The notes: generated by a model not told the origin, from the sequence alone. 64,000 nucleotides of DNA from a virus (IMGVR_UViG_3300043434_000833:7708-71707), one strand, 5' to 3'; shown: positions 10,153-60,115, counted from the first letter of the stretch. Translations and numbers: made by a program.

Positions 10153-10749
10153 ATGACAAAAGAATTAGTAGTATCATATTATAAAGAAAACCTATTATGG
10201 TTAAATAAAATAAAGGATTATAAAATTACAGTTTATAATAAATCTGAAATTGAAATCCCTAACACTATTAAGTTGAATAATGTTGGAAGGGAGATGCACA
10301 CGTATTTCCACCACATTACCACTAACTATGACAATTTATCTGATTGGGTATTCTTCACACAAGGAGAACCGTTTGATCACGTTAAAAATTACGATTGGTT
10401 ATTAGACGTGTTCCCAAATTCGTTAGTATATAACAAATTAAACGTAGATGATTGTTATTTTTTTACCAATGGAATTTTTAAAGATAAATTAATTAGTAAA
10501 TCTAACGGAACTCCTCATCATCACCCAATATTAAATATTGATTCATTGTGGTCTTCACTATTCACGTCACCGCCACCAATTGAATATCCATTTGTTGCAG
10601 GTTGTTTATTCTGTGTAACTAAAGAACAAATAAGGATGAGGGATATTTCCTTTTATGAGAAGTGTAAAAAAATAACTGAAGAAAGGGAACAATCTCCTTG
10701 GGAGTTTGAGAGGATGATGTTTTACGTTTTCAATAAAAATGTGATATGA
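10153..10749 (+). CDS. DUF3431-like protein
   Basis: LVVSYYKENLLW, NVGREMHTYFHHI..NYDNL, FTQGEPFDH, FER. Confidence 0.75.
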   Translation: MTKELVVSYYKENLLWLNKIKDYKITVYNKSEIEIPNTIKLNNVGREMHTYFHHITTNYDNLSDWVFFTQGEPFDHVKNYDWLLDVFPNSLVYNKLNVDDCYFFTNGIFKDKLISKSNGTPHHHPILNIDSLWSSLFTSPPPIEYPFVAGCLFCVTKEQIRMRDISFYEKCKKITEEREQSPWEFERMMFYVFNKNVI

Positions 10750-10848
10750 ATAAAATAGATAATCACTATGAATTCTTAGAAAATAATGATATATTATTTG
10801 GAGATGGTTATAAAAAAATAATTTTTGGATTTTAAAAAAAACAATAAT

Positions 10849-17225: not shown

Positions 17226-17893
17226 TATCTTTTTGTTATTATTATGATTCCGTTAAGGAAATTTATTGATTCAATATCAGTTCTACAATCCGGTTGTACT
17301 CTATTTGAAAAAGGTATTAATTTATCTTCTCGTCTGTCCCATACTGCAGGTTGATCTTCCACATTCTCAAGACCTCTAAAGTTCACATCGTCAGTCAATT
17401 TCTTAAAGTATTCCATCATAGTATTAGGTTTATTCAAACCACCACCATATGAATGAAAGTATGATGTGTGAACATCCTCAATTACATATACTCCACCCGA
17501 TTTAACTGAACCGAATAAATGTTCGAATGAATAAATTACGTGTTCATTCATATGTGAACCATCGTCCAAAATCATATCGAACGGCCCATACTGTTGCCAT
17601 ATTCTTGATAAAAAATTACCATCATACTGTGAACCAATTTCAACCATTATTCTCGGTTCTTCGAAACTTTTACAATCAGGATTAATATCAATACCTAATA
17701 TGTTTGAACGATAAAAGTAATCTTTCCAAGTTAATAGAGATTTACCATCTAAAATTCCAATCTCCATTATGTTTATTTCTTCGTGTCTTTTAAATGGTAA
17801 GTATTTCTCATACTTAACACAATAATTGTGTTTTTCTGACGACTTATCCGTACCATAATCAATTGCTAATCTGTCTAATGTGCTCATTTCCAA
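17225..17893 (-). CDS. Sugar O-methyltransferase (MycE/TylE-like class I SAM)
   Basis: YGTDK, EIGI..G.SL..W..YF, GIDI, GSQ, DDGSH, GGVYVIED. Confidence 0.85.
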   Translation of the reverse strand: MEMSTLDRLAIDYGTDKSSEKHNYCVKYEKYLPFKRHEEINIMEIGILDGKSLLTWKDYFYRSNILGIDINPDCKSFEEPRIMVEIGSQYDGNFLSRIWQQYGPFDMILDDGSHMNEHVIYSFEHLFGSVKSGGVYVIEDVHTSYFHSYGGGLNKPNTMMEYFKKLTDDVNFRGLENVEDQPAVWDRREDKLIPFSNRVQPDCRTDIESINFLNGIIIITKR

Positions 17894-20619
17894 AAATATA
17901 TCATTTGTAAAGAATTATTCGAACCCATAAACAATAGGTAAGAATTAAATCCAAGTTTATTAAGTCTTTGTATTAAATTATTTCTCAAGTCCTCGTCACG
18001 ATTGAAGTGACTATGATGGTACTCCATTGCAATGGTTTTTACCTTACCTAAATTCTCATCACTAATACCAGCAAAGGCGGCGTGTTCTGCACCCTCAATA
18101 TCCACCTTTAAAAAATCTATTTTATCAACTAAACCACTGTCAAAAAGGTAGTTCAACGTGTACGTTCTGACACTGTAACCTTCTTTATCTTGATAACCAA
18201 ATACATTCGACCCACCTAAGTGGTCACTTTCATATAAATTCAATTCCCCGATTTCGTGACTAACAGCCGCATTGAAAATTACTGATTTGGGATTTGCGTT
18301 TAACGATAATAATTTAAAGTATCTTCTATCAGGCTCAAATGAAATAACTTTACTCGCCCCTTGGCTATATGCCCATCTATTGAAGATACCCATATTACCA
18401 CCTAAATCCACCACCACGTCACCTTCGTGAATTTGTTTGACATTCCTGTCTTTGTAGTAATCATATAGGTTAAAAATTTCGTGGTAGATTGCTCGGGCCC
18501 ATCCATATTTCTCCGCAATTTCAATAGTCCCACCTTCAATATTTTTAATATCCCCTAAATTTTCTAATTTATATGTATTAACATCCAACGATGTATAAAA
18601 CTTCTCGGATTTATAAAAACTATCATCTCGTTTCATCTTAATAAAATCCACCATAAAGTCGGACATCTGTGCATTCTTGTTACCGTGAAAATAAAGAATT
18701 TGGTTCTTATCTTTTGGTATCACTTGGTACCCAAAAATTCTATTAAAATTCTGTGGACCTTCTTCGTTCCAAAACTTTAAAAAATGATGTTGTGTTTCAT
18801 TGGTCATTCCATCATCACCATCATACGATGATGTGTCAAAGTTTGATAATGGTAAATGTTTTTTAAAATTATATTTCCATCTCATTACGTTATCAATTCC
18901 CTCGTCGTTCCATAGATATAGACGTTTATAGTCGTTAGGATTAGTTTCCATTATGGTAACATAATGACTAACAATTTCCTCAAACCACCATTTACATTCT
19001 TTATTGAACACGTACATACAAACGTGCATATATGGTTGTGATTTTCTTACTCCCCATTCATTTGCAACTTGTTCATTGAATAGTTGTGATTTGTTACCAT
19101 TATTGTACCAACCAAAGAATTCTTCTTGTACGTGAATGTCGGATATCGGATAATTTTCAATTTCAGAAAAATACTTTTTAATTTCGTCAACGTTGTAATT
19201 AACGACAACATCACCATCTAACCAAACATAATTATCAAAACCTTCATTCAATGATTCAATACAAGCCCATTGTTTCCAATACCATTTATCGTGTTCCGAA
19301 ATTTTAGGCGTGGTTATTGTTCGTTTAATGACGTTTGGATAATCAAAAGGTACTTCACAATCAACACCATAAACAATAATTTTTCTCTTAGAGAATTCCA
19401 TTAACGATTGTACTAACTTCTCAATAACCGGCATATAACCAATATTACCAGTTGTTATAAATGCGAAATCATTAAATCTATTTTCCAATAAATCTGACGC
19501 ACCTTTAGCGATAGTGTCCCAATTAAAATCTTTGTGTATTCTCTTTGAATCCTCACGTGATGTAATCCACATTGCCGTATCATAATCATAAGCTTGACGC
19601 ATTTTCCATCTCAAGTCGTCCCAATCAGGTTCACAATAATCACCCGGAAAATCTTTATGTTCGTGATTGGCGGGTGTTAAACCTTTAACTGAGACAGGTA
19701 CACCTTTATCTAAAGTGAATTGTAGTTGACCCCCCCAATCCGAATATAGTGATGGTGTTCCACAAGCCATCGCCTCAATCAACGGTAAATTCCAACCCTC
19801 ACTTCTTGCACAAGAAATGAATGCGTGTGCAGTCTGTAAATAATTTACATATTCCTCTTGTGATGGGAACTTAACAAACTTAATATTCTTAGTGTCAATA
19901 CCGTAGTGTTCAATTCTTTCCTCCGTAGTTTTTAACCCATCAGAAGGATAAGGATTCTCAACTGATGCGATTAATTCAATATCATCTTGGTCTTTAAATT
20001 CTTCCGCAAATGCTTGTAATATTTCGGTTGTCCCCTTTCTCCATTCCCATCTACCAAACATTACAAACCGTGTTTTATCTCTCTTAGGGTATTTTTTAAT
20101 TGGTTTGTATAAATCAACATCAACCCCCTCTGGCACAATTGAAATTTTTTCCTTTGGGTATCCTTGTTCAACTAAACAATCAAATTGCCATTGTGATGGA
20201 ACCCATACCTCATCAAAGTAAAATAGACGTCTAAAGAATTGTTCTGGGTATCTTGTAGATTCCCATACATTATAAGCGATTTTATACCCGTCGTAATTTT
20301 GATAGAAGTAATGATTATTGGTTTCAGCTAATATAATATGAACATCAGGTTTAAAATCCCCTTTGTAATCGTACATTGGATAATCCGACCTACTATTATC
20401 ATTATTAAAAAGAGTTTGAAGGATTAACATATCTTTCATCTCATCGGTGATATAAGACTCATCATCGTGAGGTGTGTTATTCATACCTTTCCAACCCTTA
20501 CCGATTGTTGAATTTCTTACCTTAACTGTGTGGTATTTGTTAAGTGCACAAAAAAAAGACTTTGCGTGATTGGCATATCCCGTTGTGCCAATAAATGAAG
20601 TGTGAGCTAATATATTCAT
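17884..20619 (-). CDS. Three-domain fusion: GT4 + GT-A (DXD) + FkbM methyltransferase
   Basis: SEGWNLPLIEAMACG; WKQ...WLDGD; DLGGNMGIF...FEP...LKVDIEGAE. Confidence 0.88.
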   Translation of the reverse strand: MNILAHTSFIGTTGYANHAKSFFCALNKYHTVKVRNSTIGKGWKGMNNTPHDDESYITDEMKDMLILQTLFNNDNSRSDYPMYDYKGDFKPDVHIILAETNNHYFYQNYDGYKIAYNVWESTRYPEQFFRRLFYFDEVWVPSQWQFDCLVEQGYPKEKISIVPEGVDVDLYKPIKKYPKRDKTRFVMFGRWEWRKGTTEILQAFAEEFKDQDDIELIASVENPYPSDGLKTTEERIEHYGIDTKNIKFVKFPSQEEYVNYLQTAHAFISCARSEGWNLPLIEAMACGTPSLYSDWGGQLQFTLDKGVPVSVKGLTPANHEHKDFPGDYCEPDWDDLRWKMRQAYDYDTAMWITSREDSKRIHKDFNWDTIAKGASDLLENRFNDFAFITTGNIGYMPVIEKLVQSLMEFSKRKIIVYGVDCEVPFDYPNVIKRTITTPKISEHDKWYWKQWACIESLNEGFDNYVWLDGDVVVNYNVDEIKKYFSEIENYPISDIHVQEEFFGWYNNGNKSQLFNEQVANEWGVRKSQPYMHVCMYVFNKECKWWFEEIVSHYVTIMETNPNDYKRLYLWNDEGIDNVMRWKYNFKKHLPLSNFDTSSYDGDDGMTNETQHHFLKFWNEEGPQNFNRIFGYQVIPKDKNQILYFHGNKNAQMSDFMVDFIKMKRDDSFYKSEKFYTSLDVNTYKLENLGDIKNIEGGTIEIAEKYGWARAIYHEIFNLYDYYKDRNVKQIHEGDVVVDLGGNMGIFNRWAYSQGASKVISFEPDRRYFKLLSLNANPKSVIFNAAVSHEIGELNLYESDHLGGSNVFGYQDKEGYSVRTYTLNYLFDSGLVDKIDFLKVDIEGAEHAAFAGISDENLGKVKTIAMEYHHSHFNRDEDLRNNLIQRLNKLGFNSYLLFMGSNNSLQMIYFWK

Positions 20620-20624
20620 ATACC

Positions 20625-20655
20625 ATAATATATCAAAAAATATTTAAAAAATCAA
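20625..20655 (-). promoter_or_regulatory. -33/-7 type promoter
   Basis: TTG-N20-TATATTAT, 5 nt before ATG. Confidence 0.55.
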
Positions 20656-21368
20656 CATATTCGTGACATATACCTCTTTAAATTTGGGTGAATTTTGGTT
20701 AAGTTTATTTGCTTCTCATATGGTAACATTGAAATTTTAAAATCGTTTTCAGGTTTGAATGTTGGTTTATAATCCATTATTTCGAAAGGGAACTCAATAA
20801 TAAAATCGTAAATCAAATTCCAATACTTTTTATCGGGTAACTTGTTTGAGTGTCCTTTAATTTGGACTATCGTATGTTTAACTAAATCAAAAACAATAAT
20901 AATATGGCTGATGTTATTTAAATCCGTAGATTCCCTCAATTCAAATGTTGTGTTACCGTACCTTACTCGTCCACAATCTTTCATTCTAATCATAGACTCA
21001 ATACAGAATAACTTCCCAATATCGACCCAATAATAACCGATACCGTTATTTCGATAATCACATACAATTTTATTTTTATCGGTAAAATTATATGTATTAT
21101 ATTTTTCTTTATAGTCATTGTACCATCTTTCCCAAATTGGTATGATATTATTTAAAGGAATGTTATTTATATCACCATATGTAATATCATCATTAGAGTC
21201 GATGTAATTACATAATGCAAAAATGACATTATTTAATTCTACTTTAGAAAAGTTATTTAAATCATTGATATCCGTTTTTAATTTATTCAATACTATTAAT
21301 CCGATTTCTTCCCCCAACATTTTAATAATATCGCCTTTTCGTTTTAATAAATTTTTTAACGTTATCAT
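20652..21368 (-). CDS. Hypothetical protein (PcfJ-like C-terminal segment)
   Basis: MKDCG...IVQIKGHSNKLP reminiscent of PcfJ-like domains; weak. Confidence 0.45.
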   Translation of the reverse strand: MITLKNLLKRKGDIIKMLGEEIGLIVLNKLKTDINDLNNFSKVELNNVIFALCNYIDSNDDITYGDINNIPLNNIIPIWERWYNDYKEKYNTYNFTDKNKIVCDYRNNGIGYYWVDIGKLFCIESMIRMKDCGRVRYGNTTFELRESTDLNNISHIIIVFDLVKHTIVQIKGHSNKLPDKKYWNLIYDFIIEFPFEIMDYKPTFKPENDFKISMLPYEKQINLTKIHPNLKRYMSRIC

Positions 21369-22024
21369 ATTATTTTTTTAGATTGTGATAATGAGTACAA
21401 ATAATGTGCAAAATTGAAGTGTCCATTAAATGAGAAATGTGTATCATTTATTGTCCCTTGTGTATGGTCTTTTATTGTTTGAAAAGACCTATATATATTA
21501 TCATCATCTTCTAAAGACCACATAAAGAAAAATTTAATTTTTTTATCTTTTTTAAATCTGTCTCTTATGTAATTAAAACGTTTTTTATGTCTATCTTTAT
21601 AAAATTGGTGATTAGAGAAATGGTATTGGAAATTAACAATTGATTCAATAATCTCATTATTTTCTTTTTCGGCATCACTACTTAATATCTTATCCGCACG
21701 TTCATACATCGATAATACGTTATGAACATTGTCACCTATTGGTACGTCGATTCTCCCAAAAAGTGTCATATTAATGATTACAATATCATTTTTATCAATA
21801 TCATCATAGTTGTCTAAGATACTATCAAAAATGTAATCATTTGATGCACCGTTTTTACCTAAATTTTTTACACTATAATTTAACAACTTACTTAAATGAT
21901 TTGGCCATATATCGTCACCTTCCTTTTTGAATTTTTGATAATCTTCACGTGTATTCGAAGGGCAATTATTATTACAACCGTGACCAAAAGTCATTGAATC
22001 CCCAAATGTCCAAAGTGTGTTCAT
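21365..22024 (-). CDS. SGNH/GDSL-like acyltransferase or esterase
   Basis: FGDSMTFG, NLGKNGASN, DTHFS. Confidence 0.75.
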   Translation of the reverse strand: MNTLWTFGDSMTFGHGCNNNCPSNTREDYQKFKKEGDDIWPNHLSKLLNYSVKNLGKNGASNDYIFDSILDNYDDIDKNDIVIINMTLFGRIDVPIGDNVHNVLSMYERADKILSSDAEKENNEIIESIVNFQYHFSNHQFYKDRHKKRFNYIRDRFKKDKKIKFFFMWSLEDDDNIYRSFQTIKDHTQGTINDTHFSFNGHFNFAHYLYSLSQSKKII

Positions 22025-22572
22025 TAAATAATGGTTTTTATTTTCTTTTCATTAAACTCCTTATTGTTAGTATGAATGTACATATCAAAAAGTGTTTGTT
22101 TTAAATCAATATTCAAATAATGACAAATTTCGATTAATTCTTCGCTAGGTGTGTCAGTGTATATATCCTCATAAAAAAAGATTTTTTTATCTTTAGTTAT
22201 TTCATCAAAAACACTATTCCAAGATTCTATATTTTTTTTTGCCACGACATCACTAACTTCTTTAGTTAAATCTGGTTGTTGAAAATCAGACATAGATTTT
22301 ATCGTTTCGTTAATGTTTCTTCGTTTAATATATATTACCTTATCAAAATAACCGATAATTCTTTTTGAATGCTCAAACATAGTTTCACCATTTTTAAATA
22401 ATAAATTATCAGTCAATACCGTTTTCACAACACATTTATCACCCCAAATGAAATCGATAGTTTTTTTAAATGGTTCATACGATGAATGGTAATTAGATGA
22501 GACCGATAAACGTATAAAATTAAATAAACTACTGGTTCCCGATCTCGGCATACCAAATATCAATATCTTCAT
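22024..22572 (-). CDS. Sulfotransferase-like protein
   Basis: GMPRSGTS 5'-PSB loop, EPF, IKRRN...S, YED. Confidence 0.7.
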   Translation of the reverse strand: MKILIFGMPRSGTSSLFNFIRLSVSSNYHSSYEPFKKTIDFIWGDKCVVKTVLTDNLLFKNGETMFEHSKRIIGYFDKVIYIKRRNINETIKSMSDFQQPDLTKEVSDVVAKKNIESWNSVFDEITKDKKIFFYEDIYTDTPSEELIEICHYLNIDLKQTLFDMYIHTNNKEFNEKKIKTII

Positions 22573-23270
22573 TAAATTAATGTTTTTTTAATTAAAAATC
22601 GACCAGTTATTGTTTTTTCTGCCATATGACAAAGTCCATTTTCATTTAAATCATCGTATGATGGATTTTCATTAAATAAATAATTCACCTCATTAAAGTA
22701 TGTGTTAACATACTGTTGGTTTAATGTGATTGGGGGTACGTCATTATATCTTTTTGTGAAAAAATCATAATTATCATCAATAACGTTTATAACATCAAGA
22801 TAAGCACAATTTATTTTAGTAAATTGTTCGGTGGCTATTATTGATGTGTTGTTTAATTCATTTATTTGAGTGTCGTCATTAAGATACTTTTTAAAAATTT
22901 CCGTAAAAGTCTCAACTTGGTTTTCATCAATTTTACGTTTATAACATACATTTAATTGTTCCGATTTTATAAGTTTAATTAATTTATCAAAATCTTCTAT
23001 AATTAAATCATTATCTAAATGTATGAAAGGTTTATTTATTAATGATAACACTTTTAATTTTGGATAAGACCATAATGTATTAATTTTAAATCGATTATCG
23101 ATGTCAAACGGTTCCCATTTATAATCTAATTTGGTATTTAAAAAATAATTTTTGTCAGAATAAATTGTCGGTATTACTCCGGTTTTATTTAAATTAAAAA
23201 TTGTATATTTTAAATAAATTTCGGTTATTTCTTTTAATCTAACAGGTAAATAGGTGAATATTACATCCAT
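22572..23270 (-). CDS. DUF6734-like GT-A fold protein
   Basis: LWSYPKL...KPFIHLDND. Confidence 0.6.
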   Translation of the reverse strand: MDVIFTYLPVRLKEITEIYLKYTIFNLNKTGVIPTIYSDKNYFLNTKLDYKWEPFDIDNRFKINTLWSYPKLKVLSLINKPFIHLDNDLIIEDFDKLIKLIKSEQLNVCYKRKIDENQVETFTEIFKKYLNDDTQINELNNTSIIATEQFTKINCAYLDVINVIDDNYDFFTKRYNDVPPITLNQQYVNTYFNEVNYLFNENPSYDDLNENGLCHMAEKTITGRFLIKKTLI

Positions 23271-24517
23271 TATATGAGTGGTTGTTTTTCTGTTATTTCT
23301 TTTTTAAATCCCTTAATAACTATATCTAATAATGAATTATCATTCTCAATCATTTTAATTAATTTTAAATGTGCCAAATCTGACCAATTCTTACATAATT
23401 TGAAATTATTTTCAAAATCTTTCATAAATGTTTGTACAAAATTAGCAAACAATTTACCATTTGTTTTACATTTTAATGATTCACCGTAAAATGGATGTGG
23501 AGGTAAATCTAACATTTTTTGTAAGATTTGTAGTGGATACTCGTGTGTTGAGATAAATGGTATACCTGATAATATTAAAATAAATGTTTTTTCCGAAAGG
23601 TACTGTGAAGTAAACTGATATCTACTCCAAGACCAACTTTCACAAAGAATTTGCATCTTTGCCTTTGGTAATACTCTGAAAAACATATCCATATAACCTT
23701 TATGGTTATCTATATATGTTAAATCAGAAAAATCATTATTACCAACAACTGAATTTGTATTTATATGGTTTAACAAATTCGTATTTTCTAAATAATCTGG
23801 GTTCTTTAATGAATCACTTCTTTGTATTAAAATTTTATTATTCTTAATTTTATCTAATTCGATAGCAATTTCTACCCTATTTTTTTTATGATTCTTAAAA
23901 CTATACATTAAATCATAATCAAAATTTAGTTTATCGTAAATTTGTTTAAATTCATAAAACCATCTGATTCCAATAATTTCATTCCATTGAAACACCGTAT
24001 TAGTTAATGAATAGTATAAATTAGAGTGCTTTGTTTCGATGTAATCATTTAAAAATATGTTGTCGGTCACAACATAATGATTACCTAAATCATTTAATAA
24101 GTTTTCAATTTCCAACCACTTATCATTTTGATTGAAGGTATCGTTAGTTTGTAAAATCTTTTCCGTTCTAAAATACGTTATTATCCATTTTTGATTTACA
24201 GGAACGTATTTTAATAAATTATTATAAATGGTTAAGATTTGTTGAGTTTCTCTTTCCATATAATGATTATCTCTTTCTATGTGTCCAATTTTAGGGTCTT
24301 CTTGACCATAAAAAAGTGCCGTAAAATAATCTAATAAATGAAAACCGTCATTCTCAAAACTGATTTCTTGTTTAAAAATAAATTCTATATTTGTGTTTTT
24401 GTATTTACAAAATACACTACCTACTTTATCGGTGATAAAAAATCGTCTCTCAGTTGTGTTATGAGCAATTTTATAAAAAATAGATTTATTATAGTAATGA
24501 TGGATATAAAATTTCAC
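23270..24517 (-). CDS. Putative GT10-like glycosyltransferase (divergent paralogue)
   Basis: QILCES...YLSEKTF...GIPFI motif shared with five other ORFs here. Confidence 0.5.
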   Translation of the reverse strand: MKFYIHHYYNKSIFYKIAHNTTERRFFITDKVGSVFCKYKNTNIEFIFKQEISFENDGFHLLDYFTALFYGQEDPKIGHIERDNHYMERETQQILTIYNNLLKYVPVNQKWIITYFRTEKILQTNDTFNQNDKWLEIENLLNDLGNHYVVTDNIFLNDYIETKHSNLYYSLTNTVFQWNEIIGIRWFYEFKQIYDKLNFDYDLMYSFKNHKKNRVEIAIELDKIKNNKILIQRSDSLKNPDYLENTNLLNHINTNSVVGNNDFSDLTYIDNHKGYMDMFFRVLPKAKMQILCESWSWSRYQFTSQYLSEKTFILILSGIPFISTHEYPLQILQKMLDLPPHPFYGESLKCKTNGKLFANFVQTFMKDFENNFKLCKNWSDLAHLKLIKMIENDNSLLDIVIKGFKKEITEKQPLI

Positions 24518-25036
24518 CTATATTATTTTTTTAACATATTTGTTTCTGTCACCCTTTCTCAAACGACTTTCATCATTTGGATTGTATAAATCTTCATAAT
24601 ATGTTATAGGAATATCTAATTCATTTGATAAAGTGTTCAATATCTCATTCCATTTAATTATGTTATTATTACATAACTCATCAATCGGTGTTGGTTCCCA
24701 TAAATAAGGGTCATTCGATGTAAATCCGTTTTTTCGATTGTACACCGAGTATGCGTGACTTTCAGCACAAGCTTTTAAATCTTTTCTACTTAATAATATA
24801 ATTTCATCAAATAATTTTGAAAATTTAATTACCCAATCAATGTAGTTATCGCAATTTTCAGGTTTTTGTACATCAACAATTGTTTTTAAAACAATGTTAT
24901 CCATATTATCCTTATATGTAACTCGATTGGTTCCATCGAAAGGTTCAAATAAGGGTCTTAAATTTTTGGAATTTGCAATTGAATGTAATAAAGATGTTGA
25001 TCCAGTTCTTGGTAACGAAATGATTAATATTCTCAT
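24518..25036 (-). CDS. Sulfotransferase-like protein
   Basis: SLPRTGSTS, FEPF, LLSRKD...S, YEDL. Confidence 0.72.
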   Translation of the reverse strand: MRILIISLPRTGSTSLLHSIANSKNLRPLFEPFDGTNRVTYKDNMDNIVLKTIVDVQKPENCDNYIDWVIKFSKLFDEIILLSRKDLKACAESHAYSVYNRKNGFTSNDPYLWEPTPIDELCNNNIIKWNEILNTLSNELDIPITYYEDLYNPNDESRLRKGDRNKYVKKII

Positions 25037-25602
25037 AGTAAAGTATTGTTAACTTTTAGTTTCGGATAATTAAAATCAGTCTCCGTCATCCAAATATTTA
25101 AAGCAAATCTATTTCCCTTGGTCACCGGTAACACTCCGTGATAAGTTTGTGAACCATTAAATGATATTAAATCACCCAATTTAAGGTTAAATGTTTCTAT
25201 ACTATCTAACGTTTCAAAATGAAATGATGGGTTTTTATCTTTACATAAAGCAAATTGACCTCCTTCATAACCATCCGATAAAACAATAACAGTTGTTAGT
25301 TCACTTGTTTTATCTTTATGTAAACTAAGATAGCGACCATTGTAGTAAGACGTTAAACTAATATTAAAATTTTTTAATTTAAAATCTCCGTAATTGAACC
25401 ATAATTTAAATTCATTACTTGTATATTTCTCAGTTAATCTGTTAATTATTTCTTGTTTAAAGGAGTCATCATAAATGCGTCTACAATCCCAAGATTCTGA
25501 TGGGTTATATGAAAAGGGTTCTCCGTATTCTAAACAAAAATCAATAATTGATTTAGACTCATTTTTGTCACAAAACCCACTATTAATCGAATACTCAATC
25601 AT
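25033..25602 (-). CDS. 2OG-Fe(II) oxygenase (prolyl-hydroxylase-like)
   Basis: HKD, YEGG, HGVLPV.KG.R facial triad and Arg. Confidence 0.85.
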   Translation of the reverse strand: MIEYSINSGFCDKNESKSIIDFCLEYGEPFSYNPSESWDCRRIYDDSFKQEIINRLTEKYTSNEFKLWFNYGDFKLKNFNISLTSYYNGRYLSLHKDKTSELTTVIVLSDGYEGGQFALCKDKNPSFHFETLDSIETFNLKLGDLISFNGSQTYHGVLPVTKGNRFALNIWMTETDFNYPKLKVNNTLL

Positions 25603-25633
25603 AAAAATTTAATTTTAATACTGTTGTAACTAA

Positions 25634-26368
25634 CTATATGATTGACTTAGTTCTTTTGACCGAACCATCAATATACTTATCAACGAATTCAACTAATTCA
25701 GGTGTTCGTGTTACGGCACAATAATCTAATTTAGTTTTATTTTTGTACATTAACTTAAATTCAATATTTAATTTTTTTGACATATATTCTTCAAGTTCTG
25801 TTAATTTATCAAAACTAAATTGTTTGACATTCACTTTGTCATTTGTTATCCATTGATATTGTGAAACAAAACTAAAAATATGTAATTCATACTGCTCGAT
25901 GAATTCTTCGTCTATTGGGTGTTCTTTTGATATCTCTAATTTATCAAGTAATTTAATAAGTAATGACCTTCTTGTTTTTCGTGAATTGTAAGCCATACTA
26001 AATTCCTGATAATTATCTTTTATAAAACTTATCACAAAATCATTTCCGATATTTTTTATTTTTTTACTTAACTCATCACTAATTGAATGAGTTAATAACT
26101 CAATAAAATATTTCCAAGCCGATATGAACCTATCAGTAGAATCCCTAATGATACTTATATATTCAAAATTTGTACCAAATCTATCTACAATTTGATTTAT
26201 AGTTGAATGGAGGTGCTTTTGTGGATTTTTACTACCTAACTTTATAGAATTTTCCCAAATTTTACTTGGGTATTTTAAATCTAAACCATAATTAATACAA
26301 GTATCCTCAACTGACCAAGAGGCGTTTTTTGGTATTGGTATGAATACCACTTTATCATTAATAATCAT
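25634..26368 (-). CDS. Sulfotransferase family 2
   Basis: FIPIPKNAS, IIRD..DRFISAW. Confidence 0.8.
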   Translation of the reverse strand: MIINDKVVFIPIPKNASWSVEDTCINYGLDLKYPSKIWENSIKLGSKNPQKHLHSTINQIVDRFGTNFEYISIIRDSTDRFISAWKYFIELLTHSISDELSKKIKNIGNDFVISFIKDNYQEFSMAYNSRKTRRSLLIKLLDKLEISKEHPIDEEFIEQYELHIFSFVSQYQWITNDKVNVKQFSFDKLTELEEYMSKKLNIEFKLMYKNKTKLDYCAVTRTPELVEFVDKYIDGSVKRTKSII

Positions 26369-26378
26369 TTATTTTTTT

Positions 26379-26495
26379 TTATTGTGTCACATCCGCATAA
26401 ATAAGTGTTGCCACTTCTTGCATTATGCTGGCAACATTAGTATTAGTTGTTGAATCGGTTAATACGATTTCACTTAAAATTATTTTCGGTTTCAT
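26379..26495 (-). CDS. Small 38-aa ORF downstream of Hint-fusion gene
   Basis: Not in ORF track; MKPKIILSEIVLTDSTTNTNVASIMQEVATLIYADVTQ fills the gap. Confidence 0.55.
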   Translation of the reverse strand: MKPKIILSEIVLTDSTTNTNVASIMQEVATLIYADVTQ

Positions 26496-26519
26496 ATTAT
26501 ATTATGTTATATTTAAAAT

Positions 26520-28049
26520 TTATACTTTACCTCCTTGATCACAGAAACTACAAGCACTACAATACCAAGTGGCACACATATAAGATGCACACCACGACGC
26601 ACAAATACCGTTGTGTTGGACAAACGCCAAACCTAATGTCTCATCTGCCATAAGTAAGAAGATGTCATTTGTTTCCACGTTTAAATCGTATATAGTACGA
26701 GTAATATAAATAACGTCTAAGTCAACAATTTTTGATTTGGTTAATGTATTGTTCACATAATCAAAAAATACTATAGAATCGTTTATTCTAAATCTATTGG
26801 TGTATGCAAATGTTGTTTCTAAAGTATCATATTCTTCAATCATCATTGCACTTCCTGGTAAATCTTCATAAACTATACCATTTTCCAAAGTAACTCTAAT
26901 CATCAACGATTCTTTTACTTGACTACCTAAGTCAATAACCGTTGACGACCCTACTGAAAATGATGTTAAATCAGCAGATAAGGTTCCTGAATTCACATCA
27001 TTAACATAAAGAATTTCTCCCGTTTCAGATGTTTCATTTTCCGGAACCCACGTTAAACCAATCGTTTTAACGGTGTCATTTACCAAAATTTGATTTGGGT
27101 ACTTGAATGTTCCGTCAGAAAAAAGAATAGGTGTGTCGTCGTCTAAGATATATCCAGGACCCATTCTTGTGGTTGGGGATTTACTCATCCATAATGGTCT
27201 GGCGTTTTGGTTCATTTTACCATTAGAATCATATGTTGTTTCCCAACTATTTGATTTAACAGGTGATGTCATTATATATGACCCTAAATGTAAACAATTA
27301 AGGTTACCACCATATAAAATGTCTAAACTTCTTATTACCCCCATTTTTTCATTAGCAATATTATCTGGATGAGTATGGTATTCTTCCATATATTCAGACT
27401 CACTTAATGAACTTTTTAAAGTCTGTAATGATTCTAAAGATGTAATTTTATAAAATTTCGGATAAGCAACATAATTGGTATTTGGAAATCTAGTTTTAAC
27501 TATATAGTTTGGTGCATTACCATCTGTGGTGTGAAGTGCGTTTAATTGGTCTATATTCAAATCCGGTGTAGTATTAGAATTATAATACACGTTAGGTGAA
27601 TATTCTTCATTTTGGATTAATTTGTGAAAATTAACCTTATCTTTTGTATATTCTTCATCAACGACAGCGGTTGTGTCATAAGAAGTTCTAATTATCAAAA
27701 TTCCGTCCCCATCTTCAACATATGGTACCGTAACTGAGTTTTTAGCAACTTCATAATGTGTGAACGTACCGTTAATTTCGGACATTATAGTCGACATCTT
27801 ATCTTTTAAGCTAATATTTACGGTAACAGTATCAAATACGTTATCTAATTCACTACTAAGAAAATTACCGTCTGTCGATATAAAATGTAGGTTCGTTATT
27901 GAATTATCCAATAAAAATTGTTTAAACGATACCCAATCTAAATCTGGCACTATTGAGTTATGGACATCAACGTTCGTGTTAGTCTCAATTATTCGTAAAT
28001 TACCGTCAGAATCCTTTAAGAAGTCCGTTCCAAGTATGAGTGCTTTCAT
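26520..28049 (-). CDS. Circularly permuted ATP-grasp-like domain + Hint domain + C-terminal six-Cys peptide
   Basis: GTDF..D.DG...IETNTN, YIVK..P, YMEEY; Hint block A ILDDDTPILFSDG...ILVNDTV, block F IYDLNV, terminal HN, then GICASWCASYMCATWYCSACSFCDQGGKV. Confidence 0.7.
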   Translation of the reverse strand: MKALILGTDFLKDSDGNLRIIETNTNVDVHNSIVPDLDWVSFKQFLLDNSITNLHFISTDGNFLSSELDNVFDTVTVNISLKDKMSTIMSEINGTFTHYEVAKNSVTVPYVEDGDGILIIRTSYDTTAVVDEEYTKDKVNFHKLIQNEEYSPNVYYNSNTTPDLNIDQLNALHTTDGNAPNYIVKTRFPNTNYVAYPKFYKITSLESLQTLKSSLSESEYMEEYHTHPDNIANEKMGVIRSLDILYGGNLNCLHLGSYIMTSPVKSNSWETTYDSNGKMNQNARPLWMSKSPTTRMGPGYILDDDTPILFSDGTFKYPNQILVNDTVKTIGLTWVPENETSETGEILYVNDVNSGTLSADLTSFSVGSSTVIDLGSQVKESLMIRVTLENGIVYEDLPGSAMMIEEYDTLETTFAYTNRFRINDSIVFFDYVNNTLTKSKIVDLDVIYITRTIYDLNVETNDIFLLMADETLGLAFVQHNGICASWCASYMCATWYCSACSFCDQGGKV

Positions 28050-28070
28050 ATTATTATTTTTTCTTTTTAT

Positions 28071-28078
28071 TATAAATA
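28071..28078 (-). promoter_or_regulatory. TATTTATA putative late promoter
   Basis: 21 nt upstream of ATG 28049, same spacing as at tail-fibre gene. Confidence 0.5.
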
Positions 28079-28088
28079 TAGATATTCT

Positions 28089-28730
28089 CTAAATTAGACT
28101 ATTTATTTTTTTCGCATTTTCAAACCCAACATTTGCGGCAATTACTACCCTATTTTTAGTTGAGTTTGGTGATTTATTGGGTGAATGTGGTAAATACCCT
28201 TTCATAACCAATAAATCCCCTTCTTGTGGTAAATAGTAATATCGTTGATTATCACTACCTTCAACTATTAAAGTACCTTCATTATCTTTTAAATTATCCG
28301 GCATTTGAACGTAATAAACAAACGTATATGTTGGGTAAAACGATTCTATTGATTTTTGTAAATCGATATGATTATGTAATGTGACAATATCATCCTTTCT
28401 AAAATTTTCTTGTTTTGGTTTTCCCTTTTTAACCACGTTAACCCACGAATTTACATTAATTCTATTAAATGGTGATTCATCCTCACATCTTAATTTAAAA
28501 CAAACCTCCATACCAAATTTAATTATTTCTTCTATGAAGTTATTTGGTTTCATTTCAGTTTGGAAATCAAAACTAGACCAATCATCCATATATGTGTAAT
28601 TATCTTTAGGTGAATATGGTGCAGATTTTAGAAAAATGTCAACATCATTCAAAACATTTTTTAATAATACATCGGATTCTGTTTTTGTTTTATATATGAT
28701 AACATCCTCCTCAAAAATAATTTTTTCCAT
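28089..28730 (-). CDS. Putative 2OG-Fe(II) oxygenase (TIGR02466-like)
   Basis: WVN, HNH, FVYYVQMP, EGDLL...LPH, RVVIAAN. Confidence 0.75.
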   Translation of the reverse strand: MEKIIFEEDVIIYKTKTESDVLLKNVLNDVDIFLKSAPYSPKDNYTYMDDWSSFDFQTEMKPNNFIEEIIKFGMEVCFKLRCEDESPFNRINVNSWVNVVKKGKPKQENFRKDDIVTLHNHIDLQKSIESFYPTYTFVYYVQMPDNLKDNEGTLIVEGSDNQRYYYLPQEGDLLVMKGYLPHSPNKSPNSTKNRVVIAANVGFENAKKINSLI

Positions 28731-28734
28731 ATTA

Positions 28735-29019
28735 TTATATTATACTCTTTTTTTTAATTTTTAAATGTTTCATATAATCCTGTTCTATAAAATTCCACTT
28801 ACCTAATGGGCAAGTACCATATTGATCTGTGAATATTTTTTTATTAATTGGACATCCACAGGGTCCACAATAATGTGACCACTCTTTATTATGAATAACT
28901 TCCTTTCTAAATTCACAATTAGAACAAATATCAATTCTCTTTTTAGCCAAATTTAATTCAACATCATTTGGGTTAAATGATGTTATCCAAGAATTGATTA
29001 TTTCTATTGGGTTGAACAT
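28735..29019 (-). CDS. Small Cys-rich metal-binding protein (DUF6171-like)
   Basis: R..ICSNC...CGPCGC....K...CPLGKW. Confidence 0.65.
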   Translation of the reverse strand: MFNPIEIINSWITSFNPNDVELNLAKKRIDICSNCEFRKEVIHNKEWSHYCGPCGCPINKKIFTDQYGTCPLGKWNFIEQDYMKHLKIKKKSII

Positions 29020-29026
29020 TGTGATA

Positions 29027-29236
29027 TCATTTTTTAAGTCCGAATTTAATCCATTTATACCATATTCTTTCGTGTAGGTAATATTGTATTGGTTTATAAA
29101 TTAATTCCGCAACCCCAAAAGCCGCACCAACCTTTACTGAACCACTTATTAACCACATCAATAAAAAACCAATTACCGTACTAACAATACGGTATGAAAT
29201 GGTTTTTGCTATGTGTCTTTTTCTTTCAACTATCAT
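29027..29236 (-). CDS. DUF2061 membrane protein
   Basis: RHIAKTISYRI...YYLHERIW. Confidence 0.85.
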   Translation of the reverse strand: MIVERKRHIAKTISYRIVSTVIGFLLMWLISGSVKVGAAFGVAELIYKPIQYYLHERIWYKWIKFGLKK

Positions 29237-29844
29237 AATATTTTTTTAGGTTCATTCGCATAAAAATCAACACCGTTAAATTTACTATGATACATAACAT
29301 ATTGATTATTTTGGAACATTCTATGATTTTTCCACGAATCGGGCCAAGTTTCCACTTCCTCATCGGTAAACGATATAATTTCAGAATTTAATCTTATTTC
29401 CGGTCGATAATATGCATAAAATGAAAGTACGGTACCTTCTTTACAATTTGATTTAACTTTATCCATAAAGTAAGGTAAATTACCGTCCGTATCAGTGTCA
29501 AATAAAATACCATCAAATTTTCTATTTTCTAAAGGTAATACATTATACCAATCACCAAGTATCACTTCAACATTACGTTTATCTTTAGCCCATTCTAATG
29601 CCCTTTCATATTGTATTGGATGAATCTCAATTATAGTGTGAGATGTGACATTTGGATTACTTTGAATGAAATCGGCGGAAATGTGCATTCCAAATCCTAA
29701 TTCTAAAATATCTCCACCGTTTTGTGTACTGATTTCCGCCTGTCTTTTCATAATCTTAGTTTCACAAACGTGCATTATGTGATGATTATTTTCGGGATTA
29801 AAAATATAATCATCGGTAATAATAATTTTTTCGTTACCTTTCAT
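29233..29844 (-). CDS. SAM methyltransferase, GAMT/RMT2-like
   Basis: M...E..IM, ILELGFGMHIS, HTIIEIHP, GDW, FDGILFDT; start moved to ATG 29844. Confidence 0.8.
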   Translation of the reverse strand: MKGNEKIIITDDYIFNPENNHHIMHVCETKIMKRQAEISTQNGGDILELGFGMHISADFIQSNPNVTSHTIIEIHPIQYERALEWAKDKRNVEVILGDWYNVLPLENRKFDGILFDTDTDGNLPYFMDKVKSNCKEGTVLSFYAYYRPEIRLNSEIISFTDEEVETWPDSWKNHRMFQNNQYVMYHSKFNGVDFYANEPKKIL

Positions 29845-29854
29845 TTTTTTGTTT

Positions 29855-30241
29855 TTATTTATTTTCTTCAGTAAAATATTCGATGGTATCTCCGTTTGAA
29901 TCGATATAACCATTGCGAATGTCCGTACCACTTATTTTTGCAATTTCACTTGGTGGTTCGTGATAGATAACATCATAACCAACACCTCTACCATAGTTAA
30001 TACTTTCAATATCGGGAATAATTGATATCTGTACTCTATGTGAATTATCTTTAAAGAATTGTTCCTCAGATAAATCCATCATTACTTGTTGTGCGGTTTT
30101 TGGATTATTTTCGTCAGTTGGTACATTTCTAATTGCTACCCATACGTCTTTCCCCTTCTCTAATTGTTGATTGATAAGCCACTCGTGACCTTTATGCCAA
30201 TTTTGCCAACGTCCTACGTATAACGCGTACTTTTTACTCAT
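29855..30241 (-). CDS. Small HxGH nucleotidyltransferase (cytidyltransferase-like), candidate sulfate adenylyltransferase
   Basis: GRWQNWHKGH, ISGTDIR; directly downstream of cysC. Confidence 0.75.
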   Translation of the reverse strand: MSKKYALYVGRWQNWHKGHEWLINQQLEKGKDVWVAIRNVPTDENNPKTAQQVMMDLSEEQFFKDNSHRVQISIIPDIESINYGRGVGYDVIYHEPPSEIAKISGTDIRNGYIDSNGDTIEYFTEENK

Positions 30242-30244: not shown

Positions 30245-30679
30245 TTAAATTTTTAATTTTCTTCTTAGATTTAAGAATGTATTATATTCACTACAATCTG
30301 TAGTATCACAATCAACAAAAAAGGTTAATGGTTCCTCATAATTTACGTGAAATTGTTCTCTACCTCTTATATTTATGGTATGAACATAAATTTCCACTAA
30401 ATCATCACCCATCTCAGTTTTAAATTGTTCTCTTTGATCCCTATATGGTGAAACTAATGAAACAATAACCGTGTACCCTTTGTGATGTAAAAATTTTGCC
30501 AGTATCTGAGCCTTTTCAATATTTTTACGTCTACCCTCTTCAGAGTAGTCCTTATTCACAAAAATTTCACGGATGTCGTCACCATCTACCACCATAGATT
30601 TATTTGGGAAACTTGCTTGTATCCAAGACGCTAACGTTGTTTTACCTGCTCCGGGTTGTCCGGTTAACCAATATATCAT
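30245..30679 (-). CDS. cysC: Adenylyl-sulfate kinase
   Basis: WLTGQPGAGKTT, DGDDIR, DYSEEGR..N, VSPY...R, YEEP; start moved to ATG 30679. Confidence 0.92.
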   Translation of the reverse strand: MIYWLTGQPGAGKTTLASWIQASFPNKSMVVDGDDIREIFVNKDYSEEGRRKNIEKAQILAKFLHHKGYTVIVSLVSPYRDQREQFKTEMGDDLVEIYVHTINIRGREQFHVNYEEPLTFFVDCDTTDCSEYNTFLNLRRKLKI

Positions 30680-30685
30680 ATACCA

Positions 30686-30716
30686 ATAATATAGTCTTTT
30701 TTTTTTAAAAACCAAA
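30686..30716 (-). promoter_or_regulatory. -33/-7 type promoter
   Basis: TTTG-N19-TATATTAT, 6 nt before ATG. Confidence 0.55.
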
Positions 30717-30834: not shown

Positions 30835-32505
30835 TTATTTTTGTTTATATATTACATAATTACCCATAACTAATAAATCCATATCAGTGTCAAAAAACGT
30901 ATCCACCGCATCTTTAGGTGTCAATACCATAGTTTTATCTTTAACGTTGAACGAAGTATTCAATAGTATTGGGTATCCACTTATTTGTTCAAATTCTCTT
31001 AATAATTCATATATTGCGGTGTGTTTATACACAGTCTGTACTCGAGCGGAACCATCTACGTGAGTCACCGCTTTCAATATGTCACGATATTCCTTCTTAA
31101 CTTTCACAACTTGATTCATATATGGTACATCGTCTGTCATTTCAAAGAAATCGTGTTGTCTTTCTTTAATCACCATCGGTGCGAAGGGTCTAAAACCTTC
31201 TCTTTTCTTAATTACTTTGTTAATTCTATCTTTCATACCATCTAACGTTGGGTTAGCTAAAATTGACCTATTACCTAACGCTCTCGAACCAAATTCAATA
31301 TGCCCGTGAAACCATCCCACAACATTACCCTCGTTAAGTTTCTTAGCCACATAATTTCTTAGTCCTTTTTCTGTATTAAATTTTTTGTAATGTGTACCTT
31401 TTATCGCTCTTTGGATGTCGTCATAAAGATACTGCGGTCCCAAAAATGGATTTTTTGTGATTTTACTTTTAATTTTTCTCTCTTGTATCAAATAGTGAAC
31501 TACCGCACCAATTGCCGACCCCGCATCTGACGGTGCCGGTGGTATCCATAGACTATTAAAATCCGAATCGGTGGTTATTTTACCATTTGCAGTTCCATTA
31601 TAGGCACAACCTCCACTTAAACAAAGGTTATCACTCTTTTTAATCAATGATAATGTTTTTAAAATATCAAACAAAACTTCCTCATAAACTTTCTGAACCG
31701 CAGCTGCCAAATCTTCGTGAACAGTAGTTAATGGTTCTTCAGGTAATCTTTGATCCACCCCCAACAATTCGGGTAATTTTTCGTTAAACATAATTTTATC
31801 CGACCTATCCCAACAAAAGACATCCATATTACATTTCAAACCACCATTTTTAAATGTTATTAACTCTCTAACTTTATCGATATAATTTTCCGGTTTACCA
31901 TATGACGCCAAACCCATTACTTTATATTCACCCTCATTTGGTCTAAAACCTAAAAACGAGGTCATAGCGGAATAATATAGTCCAAGTGAATGTGGATACT
32001 TTGCTATTGTATGATATTTTATACCATTATAATCCGCAAAACCATACGACATAGTGTCTTTTTCACCAACACCGTCTACGGATAAACACGTAGACTCCTC
32101 AAAATTAGATGTGTAAAATGAATAATATAAATGTGATTCGTGATGTGTCGAATAAAATACGTTAGGTGACAATTTTTTAAGTTTGTCGTCAACTTCTTTT
32201 GCTACGTTTCTAATTTTTAAATATGACCTTAATGAATATAATGGATTCTTAAACATTTGTGGTTTAATATTCTCCATTACCCTTTCATATTTTAACTTAG
32301 GATTCTCATAATAACAAACCGCCTGTAGATTCTTATCTGTTATTTTATAGTGTTTATAGATATACTCTAATACCTTCTCTGGAAAAGAACTATCGTGTTT
32401 GATACCTGTAAATTTTTCTTCTTCACAAGCGAAGATTAATTGGTTATCTCTAAAAAGACAAACTGATGAATCGTGATAAAATGCTGATATTCCTATTATA
32501 TACAT
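30835..32505 (-). CDS. Carbamoyltransferase (CmcH/NodU family)
   Basis: GISAFYHDSS, HHESH, DGVGE, GEYKVMGLA, GGCAYN, DAG, EFGSRALGNRS, RPFAP, LNTSFN. Confidence 0.96.
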   Translation of the reverse strand: MYIIGISAFYHDSSVCLFRDNQLIFACEEEKFTGIKHDSSFPEKVLEYIYKHYKITDKNLQAVCYYENPKLKYERVMENIKPQMFKNPLYSLRSYLKIRNVAKEVDDKLKKLSPNVFYSTHHESHLYYSFYTSNFEESTCLSVDGVGEKDTMSYGFADYNGIKYHTIAKYPHSLGLYYSAMTSFLGFRPNEGEYKVMGLASYGKPENYIDKVRELITFKNGGLKCNMDVFCWDRSDKIMFNEKLPELLGVDQRLPEEPLTTVHEDLAAAVQKVYEEVLFDILKTLSLIKKSDNLCLSGGCAYNGTANGKITTDSDFNSLWIPPAPSDAGSAIGAVVHYLIQERKIKSKITKNPFLGPQYLYDDIQRAIKGTHYKKFNTEKGLRNYVAKKLNEGNVVGWFHGHIEFGSRALGNRSILANPTLDGMKDRINKVIKKREGFRPFAPMVIKERQHDFFEMTDDVPYMNQVVKVKKEYRDILKAVTHVDGSARVQTVYKHTAIYELLREFEQISGYPILLNTSFNVKDKTMVLTPKDAVDTFFDTDMDLLVMGNYVIYKQK

Positions 32506-34599: not shown

Positions 34600-35215
34600 T
34601 AGTTATTATTTTAAAAAAAATCTCAGCAATTTGTTTATGTCCCTCAATACCAAAATGTGAATCCATAATTACATTATCCGTCTCGTCACTTATATTGGTA
34701 CATCCCATATCCCTTAATTGTTGAATTGTTGTTATTTGTTTATTTTGAGTTAAATTACTTTCTTCACCACACCAAAAATATAACTTAAATTTTTTACATT
34801 TTGAGTAGTTAATCATTAATTTTTCCCAACTGTAAACTTCATCGGCCCATTTAATTGATTCCCTATCTTCTATTACGTTATTCCAAAACCAACCTTTATT
34901 TGGGTATTGATTTATAAATTGATTATTCGTAACAGTTCTAAATTTAGTTAATAGAGCCCAACATACAATCACAACGTCACCACCATCTATAAAATTAGAG
35001 TTGTCACAAAAATCTTGAAATATTTGATAATTAGAATTACCTCCTTTGGCCAAATTCTTCACTTCGTACCCCATTTTTTTAGATAAAATGTTTGGCCAAG
35101 ATTCAAATATAAATTCATTCTTTAACCTTAAAAACCTATTTACATTACTATCGAATGGTGAGTTGGTGTCATAATCCGAAGTGAAACTATCACCAAATGT
35201 CCAAAGTGTATTCAT
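34592..35215 (-). CDS. SGNH/GDSL-like protein
   Basis: FGDSFT, NLAKGGNSN, DSHFG..GH. Confidence 0.75.
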   Translation of the reverse strand: MNTLWTFGDSFTSDYDTNSPFDSNVNRFLRLKNEFIFESWPNILSKKMGYEVKNLAKGGNSNYQIFQDFCDNSNFIDGGDVVIVCWALLTKFRTVTNNQFINQYPNKGWFWNNVIEDRESIKWADEVYSWEKLMINYSKCKKFKLYFWCGEESNLTQNKQITTIQQLRDMGCTNISDETDNVIMDSHFGIEGHKQIAEIFFKIITNE

Positions 35216-60084: not shown

Positions 60085-60115
60085 ATAATATAACTAAAAA
60101 AAGTTAAATTACAAA
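60085..60115 (-). promoter_or_regulatory. -33/-7 type promoter
   Basis: TTTG-N19-TATATTAT, 4 nt before ATG. Confidence 0.55.

Follow-up and report, generated by a model that had tools for sequence, protein, structure and literature searches.

Why should enzymes from quite different families, encoded side by side in a viral genome, all finish in the same few residues? The question is raised by a stretch of 64,000 nucleotides (IMGVR_UViG_3300043434_000833:7708-71707; hereafter the window), whose 71.7-kb contig has a GC content of 31%. On its minus strand, at 21365-29931, lie 13 consecutive open reading frames (ORFs), ten of which end in two residues that are each Ile or Leu ([IL][IL]), preceded by Lys-rich sequence. 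In minus-strand order these tails are PKKIL, KKSII, INSLI, TKSII, NNTLL, VKKII, KQPLI, KKTLI, IKTII and SKKII. A first-pass annotation, made from the DNA alone, had read them as a tag common to unrelated enzymes, and all ten endings are as it gave them. We argue below, from comparison with related viruses, that the tail is a short linear motif and that it occurs together with one apparently self-processing protein, which we call the anchor. More tentatively, we propose that the tail would serve as a label by which enzymes are brought to that protein.

How unusual is such an ending? ORFs in the window were called by a simple longest-ORF rule, under which C-termini depend on stop codons alone and starts may be wrong. 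We call a terminal [IL][IL] the strict tag and any two hydrophobic end residues the loose tag; counts are strict unless stated. Among window ORFs of at least 60 amino acids, 16 of 67 are tagged: 10 of the run's 12 (13 if a 38-amino acid ORF is counted) and 6 of the 55 elsewhere (Fisher test, taken as 10/13 in the run versus 6/54 elsewhere, p = 6.8e-6). Across the six frames of 21301-29950, [IL][IL] precedes 73 of 1098 stops that do not end a gene (6.6%), and a plus-strand block of nine sugar/glycosyltransferase genes at 4710-11958 has no [IL][IL] ending at all. Two relatives that carry the 415-amino acid protein of the run are records of 287 kb (G001, complete at 100% according to CheckV) and 316 kb (G002). 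In G001, 13 of 14 genes in the corresponding module are tagged versus 14 of 335 elsewhere (p = 1.8e-15), so the frequency is not the same genome-wide. Four stretches from cultured phages give a background of 4 tagged ORFs in 193, and the homologous tryptophan halogenases and 2-oxoglutarate (2OG) oxygenases of cultured phages are untagged (HTVC008M, 0/9; Syn9, 0/17; P-SSM2, 0/5).

The motif was defined by comparing the window with 100 related virus contigs; a search with the 415-amino acid protein found 38 loci in IMG/VR at 40-67% identity. In the relatives the tail is more regular, with the consensus K-x-x-K-[S/T/K]-[L/I]-[I/L]-COOH, and the tagged share per locus is 14 of 17 ORFs in L017, 14 of 19 in L007 and 10 of 12 in L021. 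In 623 non-redundant tagged tails, Lys occupies position -7 in 40% (five times background) and position -4 in 54% (6.8 times background). Position -3 is Ser in 29%, Thr in 23% and Lys in 21%, Ser and Thr together making up 52%. Position -2 is Leu (75%) or Ile (25%) and position -1 is Ile (72%) or Leu (28%). Hydrophobic residues are depleted at -3 to -5 (6-16% versus a background of 37%) and acidic residues at -3 and -4. The [IL][IL] end is present in all of these tails by definition, and Lys or Arg lies within -3 to -7 in 594 of the 623.

Which proteins carry the tail? A family count over 2000 ORFs from the 100 loci and the window gives 85 families with at least four members. The split is clean: in 21 families no less than 70% of the members carry the tag, and in 52 no more than 10% do. 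The tagged families include prolyl 4-hydroxylase (P4H)-type 2OG oxygenases, P-loop and Sulfotransfer_2 sulfotransferases, SGNH-like proteins, DUF6734 proteins and a Cys protein of about 95 amino acids. Tagged in the relatives too are a Trp halogenase (E-value 1.5e-91), a SET domain protein, and FkbM and CmcI methyltransferases. Remote 2OG representatives, where 35 of 95 matches could be scored, show how the tail is attached: tagged proteins run a median of 12 residues past the last conserved strand and untagged ones 7. Most untagged proteins end 2-8 residues past this strand and the tagged ones have 9-18 more. Judged from these alignments, the tail is an addition to unrelated single-domain enzymes, each of which ends in a polar and basic stretch of about 9-18 residues with the motif at its tip. 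A homologue search with the 2OG oxygenase of the run returned close relatives only, labelled as generic 2OG or proline hydroxylase proteins; a search of PDB sequences with the 2OG profile and a DNA search of the run against GenBank phages gave no match.

Is the tail selected as protein, or is it a by-product of the DNA that encodes it? It might arise from A-rich initiation regions without a Shine-Dalgarno (SD) sequence, from coupling at ATGA and TAATG junctions, from a promoter-like TATAAT, or from a linker used in cassette recombination. Several observations are in keeping with such an origin. SD-like cores lie upstream of only 22% of ATG-start ORFs in G001, versus 14% of random 20-mers, and A makes up 50-62% of the bases at most upstream positions between -2 and -20 (0.40 at -1; 0.46-0.48 at -9 and at -16 to -19). 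Untagged genes with overlaps show a mild enrichment in Lys (0.28 versus 0.11 at -4). One tail codon is raised, ATA at -1 (0.69 versus 0.49 internally), because ATGA overlaps require it. However, the other synonymous codons are used much as inside genes: Leu at -2 is TTA in 0.65 of cases in both, and Ser at -3 is AGT in 0.27 of tails versus 0.23 inside genes, the remainder being TCN. Within the run, the tails use ATC, CTC, CTA, ATT, ATA and TTA, and all three stop codons occur. Junctions in the run comprise ATGA, TAATG, gaps of 0-4 nucleotides, and spacers of 31 and 39 nucleotides; the tag is kept before both spacers, at the stops at 25634 and 28089, where genes do not overlap. More generally, the motif is whole where the next gene is more than 30 nucleotides away: Lys at -4, Lys at -7 and Ser/Thr at -3 have frequencies of 0.43, 0.54 and 0.55 in tagged genes (n = 119), versus 0.11, 0.11 and 0.12 in untagged genes of the same spacing class (n = 387).

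Overlap by itself does not produce the tag, which is found outside the module of G001 at 3 of 20 ATGA and 3 of 28 TAATG overlaps (6/48 together); the 6.6% at off-frame stops also speaks against a by-product. The tail is fixed relative to the stop codon and not to the next start, which moves by three nucleotides between ATGA and TAATG junctions. Among 120 close homologues of the 2OG oxygenase, 103 have the strict [IL][IL], 16 have conservative pairs (VI, ML, LV, FL, VL, IF) and one is extended. Because codon use is as inside genes, the motif is independent of spacers, overlaps elsewhere are untagged and the homologues in cultured phages lack it, the comparative evidence indicates that the tail is selected at the protein level as a short linear motif. 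The first-pass annotation had argued for such selection from the varied codons, the three stops and the non-overlapping genes, and its argument is borne out: neither an equal frequency genome-wide nor an origin in initiation regions was found. An origin at the DNA level is all but excluded, and a promoter, TATAAT or recombination linker is rejected on codon use and on the motif's independence of spacers.

Within these genomes the tag, by its distribution, is restricted to one module and co-occurs with the anchor. We scored 62 further contigs by gene position relative to the anchor. The tagged fraction is 0.87, 0.83, 0.68, 0.73 and 0.70 at positions -1 to -5, and 0.63, 0.83, 0.79, 0.63 and 0.49 at positions +1 to +5. 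Past position 7 it falls to about 0.1. The anchor itself is never tagged (0/62), and tagged genes cluster within about six genes of it. Across the anchor family none of 89 members has the tag, in line with the first-pass annotation, which had listed the Hint fusion among the proteins without it. In the tagged runs of these 89 loci, the sole recurrent untagged ORF of at least 60 amino acids, besides the anchor, is DUF2061 (8 loci).

What is the anchor? In the window it is a protein of 509 amino acids (26520-28049, minus strand) that ends in GGKV. Residues 1-295 form an ATP-grasp-like domain, residues from about 300 to 480 a Hint domain ending in HN, and the last 29 amino acids a peptide rich in Cys, Trp and Tyr. 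The top Foldseek matches of the N-terminal domain are all ATP-grasp ligases (glutathione synthetase, GspS, YgiC/YjfC, RimK), with E-values down to 6e-6 and template modelling (TM) scores of about 0.4. A language-model search with the same domain also leads to ATP-grasp clusters, and an invariant E22-x-N24 is a candidate Mg-binding E-x-N. The anchor has no Pfam match, and its N-terminal domain has no match in a search of PDB sequences. The Hint domain matches inteins, bacterial intein-like (BIL) domains and hedgehog proteins in Foldseek (E-values 6e-8 to 1e-4). It begins with Ser or Thr, and H479 and N480 are invariant in 23 sequences. The residue after HN is variable (S, G, P, T, F, Y, N), and in most sequences position +2 is Cys. 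Splicing needs a Cys, Ser or Thr nucleophile at +1, and with a variable residue there the Hint domain is likelier to cleave than to splice.

The terminal segment is about 25-30 residues long, rich in Cys, Trp, Tyr and Pro, with six Cys, and usually ends in x-K-[L/I/V]; the Lys one or two residues before the C-terminus is at least 90% conserved. In five relatives (L003, L023, L036, L037, L038) the segment is followed by a sequence like the S74-type chaperone (..KSDISFKEN..GIIAQELIG..), and it would therefore have a self-cleaving element on either side; in L036-L038 the Cys-rich part reaches about 100 amino acids. This architecture suggests that the anchor is a precursor that cleaves itself to give a Cys-rich peptide. 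An ORF of 29-50 amino acids lies downstream of it in all 70 non-identical spacers compared. This small ORF has at least two sequence types, MKPKII..DVTQ in the window and, as the main type, ..ERPAQTIK..KHL; its product may be a partner of the anchor or a second precursor. The N-terminal domain of the anchor has 264 relatives in IMG/VR. No anchor homologue was found among GenBank phages, and a search of 185,579 species genomes with two peptide patterns found none of its N-terminal domain. A homologue search with the anchor returned close relatives only, labelled "hypothetical protein."

Why would one protein without the tag be surrounded by so many proteins with it? The reading that we consider best placed, at slightly under an even chance, is that the tag is a module-specific docking label that would bring plug-in tailoring enzymes to a self-processing precursor. 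The tagged enzymes and the anchor would then form a hypervariable module for tailoring a peptide or protein. Its core would be the invariant, untagged anchor, with its ATP-grasp-like and Hint domains and its Cys/Trp/Tyr-rich segment, followed by an ORF of 37-50 amino acids. Any enzyme with the tail could be recruited to this core. The structural relatives of the ATP-grasp-like domain bind or activate the C-terminal carboxylates of peptides or proteins, which makes this domain the best candidate for the receptor. The presumed substrate is the Cys-rich segment, on which, once tethered, interchangeable hydroxylases, sulfotransferases, halogenase and methyltransferases could act without recognition domains of their own. 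Its composition suits these enzymes, offering Trp for the halogenase, Tyr for the sulfotransferases, and Pro and Lys for the hydroxylases and the SET protein. With a universal tag, one enzyme could freely replace another, in agreement with the gene content, which varies between relatives.

Several points weigh against docking to the anchor. The ATP-grasp assignment rests on fold matches of low TM score, with no Pfam or PDB sequence match behind it. Proximity to the anchor is not absolute, the distant tagged genes at 35215-38933 and 48889-51140 sitting 7-22 kb away. Although anchor clades are only about 33-37% identical to one another, their tails have one and the same consensus, so that there is no co-variation to favor the anchor over a conserved host factor. 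All of the relatives are metagenomic contigs. Co-folding of the anchor with a tagged 2OG oxygenase, in runs without controls, gave scores of 0.60, 0.11 and 0.00, which speak neither for nor against binding.

The tail could instead be a C-motif-2 degron for ClpX, like that of MuA, or a signal for another AAA+ or tail-specific protease; the promiscuous enzymes would be short-lived or remodelled by ClpX, and the precursor or product stable. As described in two papers, the MuA tag (..QNRRKKAI) consists of a basic cluster and two non-polar end residues and is transferable to other proteins (PMC12723719, PMC8138137). The likeness is close: both signals are C-terminal, both are basic and then non-polar at the last two positions, and MuA is itself a phage protein. 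Constancy of the motif across deeply diverged anchor clades is what a conserved host machine would lead us to expect, and G002 encodes ClpP (PF00574; locus L139, G002:C1:111931-112452; E-value 1e-55). However, G001 is tagged and has no ClpP, and a degron does not account for the restriction of the tag to the surroundings of the anchor, the other 335 ORFs of G001 staying at background. The strong preference for Ser or Thr at -3 is foreign to the MuA tag, and the tag here is limited to a single module, where it marks more than 20 enzyme families. We regard a degron as unlikely, yet it is the alternative that we would take most seriously.

A second alternative, improbable in our judgment and weakly supported where membrane or capsid is concerned, is a localisation signal read outside the module, by the membrane, by the procapsid or virion in the manner of encapsulin cargo, or by a host hub protein. 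Encapsulins and microcompartments load cargo through short terminal peptides that are common to unrelated enzymes of one operon, and T4-type capsids share the HK97 fold with encapsulins. As in those systems, a short terminal peptide is found here on non-homologous enzymes beside a presumed receiver that lacks it; the constancy of the motif across anchor clades is also consistent with an outside reader. The consensus of the tag differs from that of encapsulin cargo peptides. The tag is 4-7 residues long, a basic linker plus an aliphatic dipeptide and not of the Gly-Ser-Leu type, and the candidate receiver is the ATP-grasp-Hint precursor. There is no HK97-type shell in the module, the sole HK97-type gene found in G001 being that of the Gp23 capsid, about 90 kb away. 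The conserved untagged proteins of the module, namely the ATP-grasp-Hint protein, the small ORF and sometimes DUF2061, are not shell-like. Microcompartment encapsulation peptides are amphipathic helices of about 18 residues with a linker, whereas the tag is hydrophobic only at -1 and -2 and has no amphipathic periodicity, which argues against membrane insertion; a microcompartment shell gene, for which no aimed search was made, was not seen in the module either. Tail composition also rules out an amphipathic membrane helix as such. Moreover, sulfotransferases and 2OG oxygenases depend on cytoplasmic cofactors. The class I PDZ ligand pattern, [S/T]-x-hydrophobic-COOH, calls for Ser or Thr at -3, where the 623 tails have Ser/Thr in 52% and Lys in 21%; a PDZ partner (PF13180) was absent from G001 and G002 in a search with one PDZ model, whose control was positive in 14 of 14 genomes.

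Very unlikely, in our view, is that the ATP-grasp domain uses the tagged carboxylates as substrates, ligating them for example onto the conserved Lys of the Cys-rich peptide, in what would be phage-encoded protein ligation. The nearest structural relatives all activate the C-terminal carboxylate of a peptide or protein, a free C-terminus is the one feature common to all carriers, and the Lys near the anchor's own C-terminus is well conserved. Against this, consuming enzymes stoichiometrically brings no obvious gain, catalysis by the domain is itself a prediction, and the peptide tethered to the domain could just as well be what it acts on. Last comes the nucleotide-level by-product considered above, which the codons, spacers and stops leave scarcely credible.

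We now describe the genes of the run, all on the minus strand, in the order in which they are read. The first encodes a methyltransferase-like protein (29233-29844; Methyltransf_25, E-value 0.004, weak) that ends in EPKKIL, has an ATGA overlap with the next gene, and belongs to a family with 12 of 13 members tagged. It is followed by an untagged small membrane protein of the DUF2061 family (29027-29236; PF09834, E-value 5e-17; family 1/46 tagged) that ends in GLKK. A 94-amino acid Cys-rich protein (28735-29019; CxxC...CGPCGC) ends in KKKSII; its family is tagged in 68 of 82 members by the strict and 76 of 82 by the loose definition, and its usual place in relatives is directly upstream of the anchor. 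The 213-amino acid protein at 28089-28730, ending in KINSLI, has no Pfam match. It shows an HxD...H pattern and is probably an oxygenase of the double-stranded β-helix (DSBH) type; its family is tagged in 58 of 73 (strict) or 72 of 73 (loose), and the 39-nucleotide spacer lies 3' of its stop.

Downstream of the anchor, the untagged 38-amino acid ORF (26379-26495), ending in DVTQ, occupies the position at which the small ORF is conserved. Next are a Sulfotransfer_2-like protein (25634-26368; E-value 1.4e-4; ending RTKSII; family 82/87 tagged), with the 31-nucleotide spacer 3' of its stop, and the P4H-type 2OG-Fe(II) oxygenase (25033-25602; PF13640, E-value 1e-9; ending VNNTLL; family 165/184 tagged). 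Two P-loop sulfotransferase-like proteins are paralogues in a family tagged throughout (94/94): one at 24518-25036, ending in YVKKII, and one at 22024-22572, ending in KIKTII (Sulfotransfer_1/_3, E-value about 2e-3). Between them lie the 415-amino acid protein, which has no known family (23270-24517; ending EKQPLI; family 44/47 tagged), and a DUF6734-like protein (22572-23270; E-value 1.2e-4; ending IKKTLI; family 37/37 tagged). The last is an SGNH/GDSL-like protein (21365-22024; E-value 0.005, weak; ending QSKKII; family 85/101 tagged). Pfam support is weak for several carriers (SGNH, 0.005; sulfotransferases, 1e-3 to 1e-4; methyltransferase, 0.004; 2OG, 1e-9). By BLAST, the ten carriers fall into nine families. 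The view that they are non-homologous, put forward in the first-pass annotation, largely stands and fails for the one paralogous pair.

Beyond the run, the next gene downstream (20652-21368, minus strand) is untagged and ends in MSRIC. Its family is tagged in 11 of 18 members, with two hydrophobic end residues in 17 of 18, and the window copy, which borders the run, may have lost the tag recently. Four tagged genes on the same strand are distant: a 424-amino acid protein ending in ESLI (35215-36489; family 11/15 tagged), an 814-amino acid UDP-glucose-dehydrogenase-like fusion ending in KNLI (36489-38933), and two proteins with no Pfam family, ending in NKLI (48889-49857) and KKLI (49857-51140), the second of which has relatives inside the tagged runs of L036 and L038. 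These four endings and those of the three untagged proteins of the run agree with the first-pass annotation. Two more [IL][IL] endings in the window are at 60109-62022 (IKIL) and 63059-63289 (LSLI). Outside the main run of G001, five ORFs end in a basic residue (Lys or His) and [IL][IL]: 112920-113774 (KKLL), 138551-138973 (IKLI), 154529-155089 (HKII), 155772-156941 (TKLI) and 166507-166866 (KKLI). They may be additional tagged proteins.

What kind of virus carries the module? The Gp23 capsid protein (PF07068) is found in G001 (E-value 3e-78) and G002 (3e-64), in a search that covered these relatives and not the window contig; the capsid of nucleocytoplasmic large DNA viruses (NCLDV) is absent from both. 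The presence of Gp23 and the absence of an NCLDV capsid point to a T4-like phage and not to a giant eukaryotic virus. Among cultured phages, Flavobacterium phage immuto has the nearest capsid (54.5%), followed by Microcystis phage Mel-JY01 (54.1%); the best match overall, at 55.4%, belongs to an uncultured phage of 484 kb. Synteny between the 316-kb record and the window extends past the run. A search for Terminase_6C found nothing. Judged by the capsid, the module phages are a clade of uncultured, distant T4-like jumbo phages, and the host is plausibly of Bacteroidota type; the SD-poor, A-rich gene starts of G001 resemble those of Bacteroidota. The same capsid evidence, with the phage-like nearest capsids, rules out readings that assume a eukaryotic virus, such as KKXX retrieval to the endoplasmic reticulum or a -KL ending on the anchor like that of the peroxisomal targeting signal PTS1. 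One contig with the module, L021, has a name beginning GVMAG-M-; the full-length relatives have Gp23 and no NCLDV capsid, and L021 is probably a mis-binned phage fragment.

Further genes of note lie near the run. At 13365-15035 and 15093-20619 (minus strand), a fibre-like collagen-repeat protein with a Peptidase_S74 chaperone domain stands beside a large GT9 glycosyltransferase and 911-amino acid glycosyltransferase/FkbM-like proteins; all are untagged and syntenic in L011. Just upstream of the run, two untagged genes at 30245-30715 and 30835-32505 (minus strand), apparently for cofactor supply or tailoring and named here from their translation, encode an adenylylsulfate kinase look-alike (P-loop GQPGAGKT), which would supply the sulfate donor 3'-phosphoadenosine 5'-phosphosulfate (PAPS) to the sulfotransferases, and a 556-amino acid look-alike of NodU/CmcH-type carbamoyltransferases.

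How does the proposed docking label compare with known ways of assembling enzymes? Dockerin-cohesin pairs and the docking domains of nonribosomal peptide and polyketide synthases also use a terminal element to recruit unrelated enzymes to a scaffold in a modular way. These are folded modules of 20-70 residues, whereas the tag is a linear motif and depends on the C-terminus being free. In pathways for peptides that are made on the ribosome and modified after translation (RiPPs), many tailoring enzymes converge on one ribosomal precursor through its leader, and in borosin-type fusions the precursor is fused to an enzyme and released by proteolysis; the anchor resembles both. The logic here would be inverted, with the label on the enzymes and the reader on the precursor. 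No Pfam match to the RiPP recognition element (RRE, PqqD-like) was found in 22 tagged proteins scanned, and release would be by the Hint domain, with or without self-cleavage of the S74 type. T4-like cyanophages such as Syn9 contain 2OG oxygenases, halogenases and sulfotransferases in tandem arrays of non-orthologous genes, whose predicted targets are peptides or proteins (Iyer et al. 2010; PMC2938197). In contrast to the module described here, those arrays have untagged enzymes and no ATP-grasp-Hint gene, and the available text of that paper does not mention a terminal motif. In the literature searched, supplements excluded, neither the tag nor a phage protein that combines ATP-grasp and Hint domains turned up.

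The product of the module is probably a heavily modified Cys-rich peptide, made by phages of SD-poor hosts that are perhaps Bacteroidota. Should the tail prove to be a degron, these phages would be the first to use such a C-terminal signal across a whole pathway. If it is a docking label, it would be a minimal, transferable means of recruiting arbitrary enzymes to one substrate protein. This would explain the free swapping of hydroxylases, sulfotransferases, halogenases and methyltransferases, as a newcomer would need the tail alone, and the tag could be put to use in engineering peptides with combinatorial modifications. In any case, a widespread and unannotated phage module emerges, built around an anchor that has no Pfam family and whose relatives number 264 in IMG/VR.

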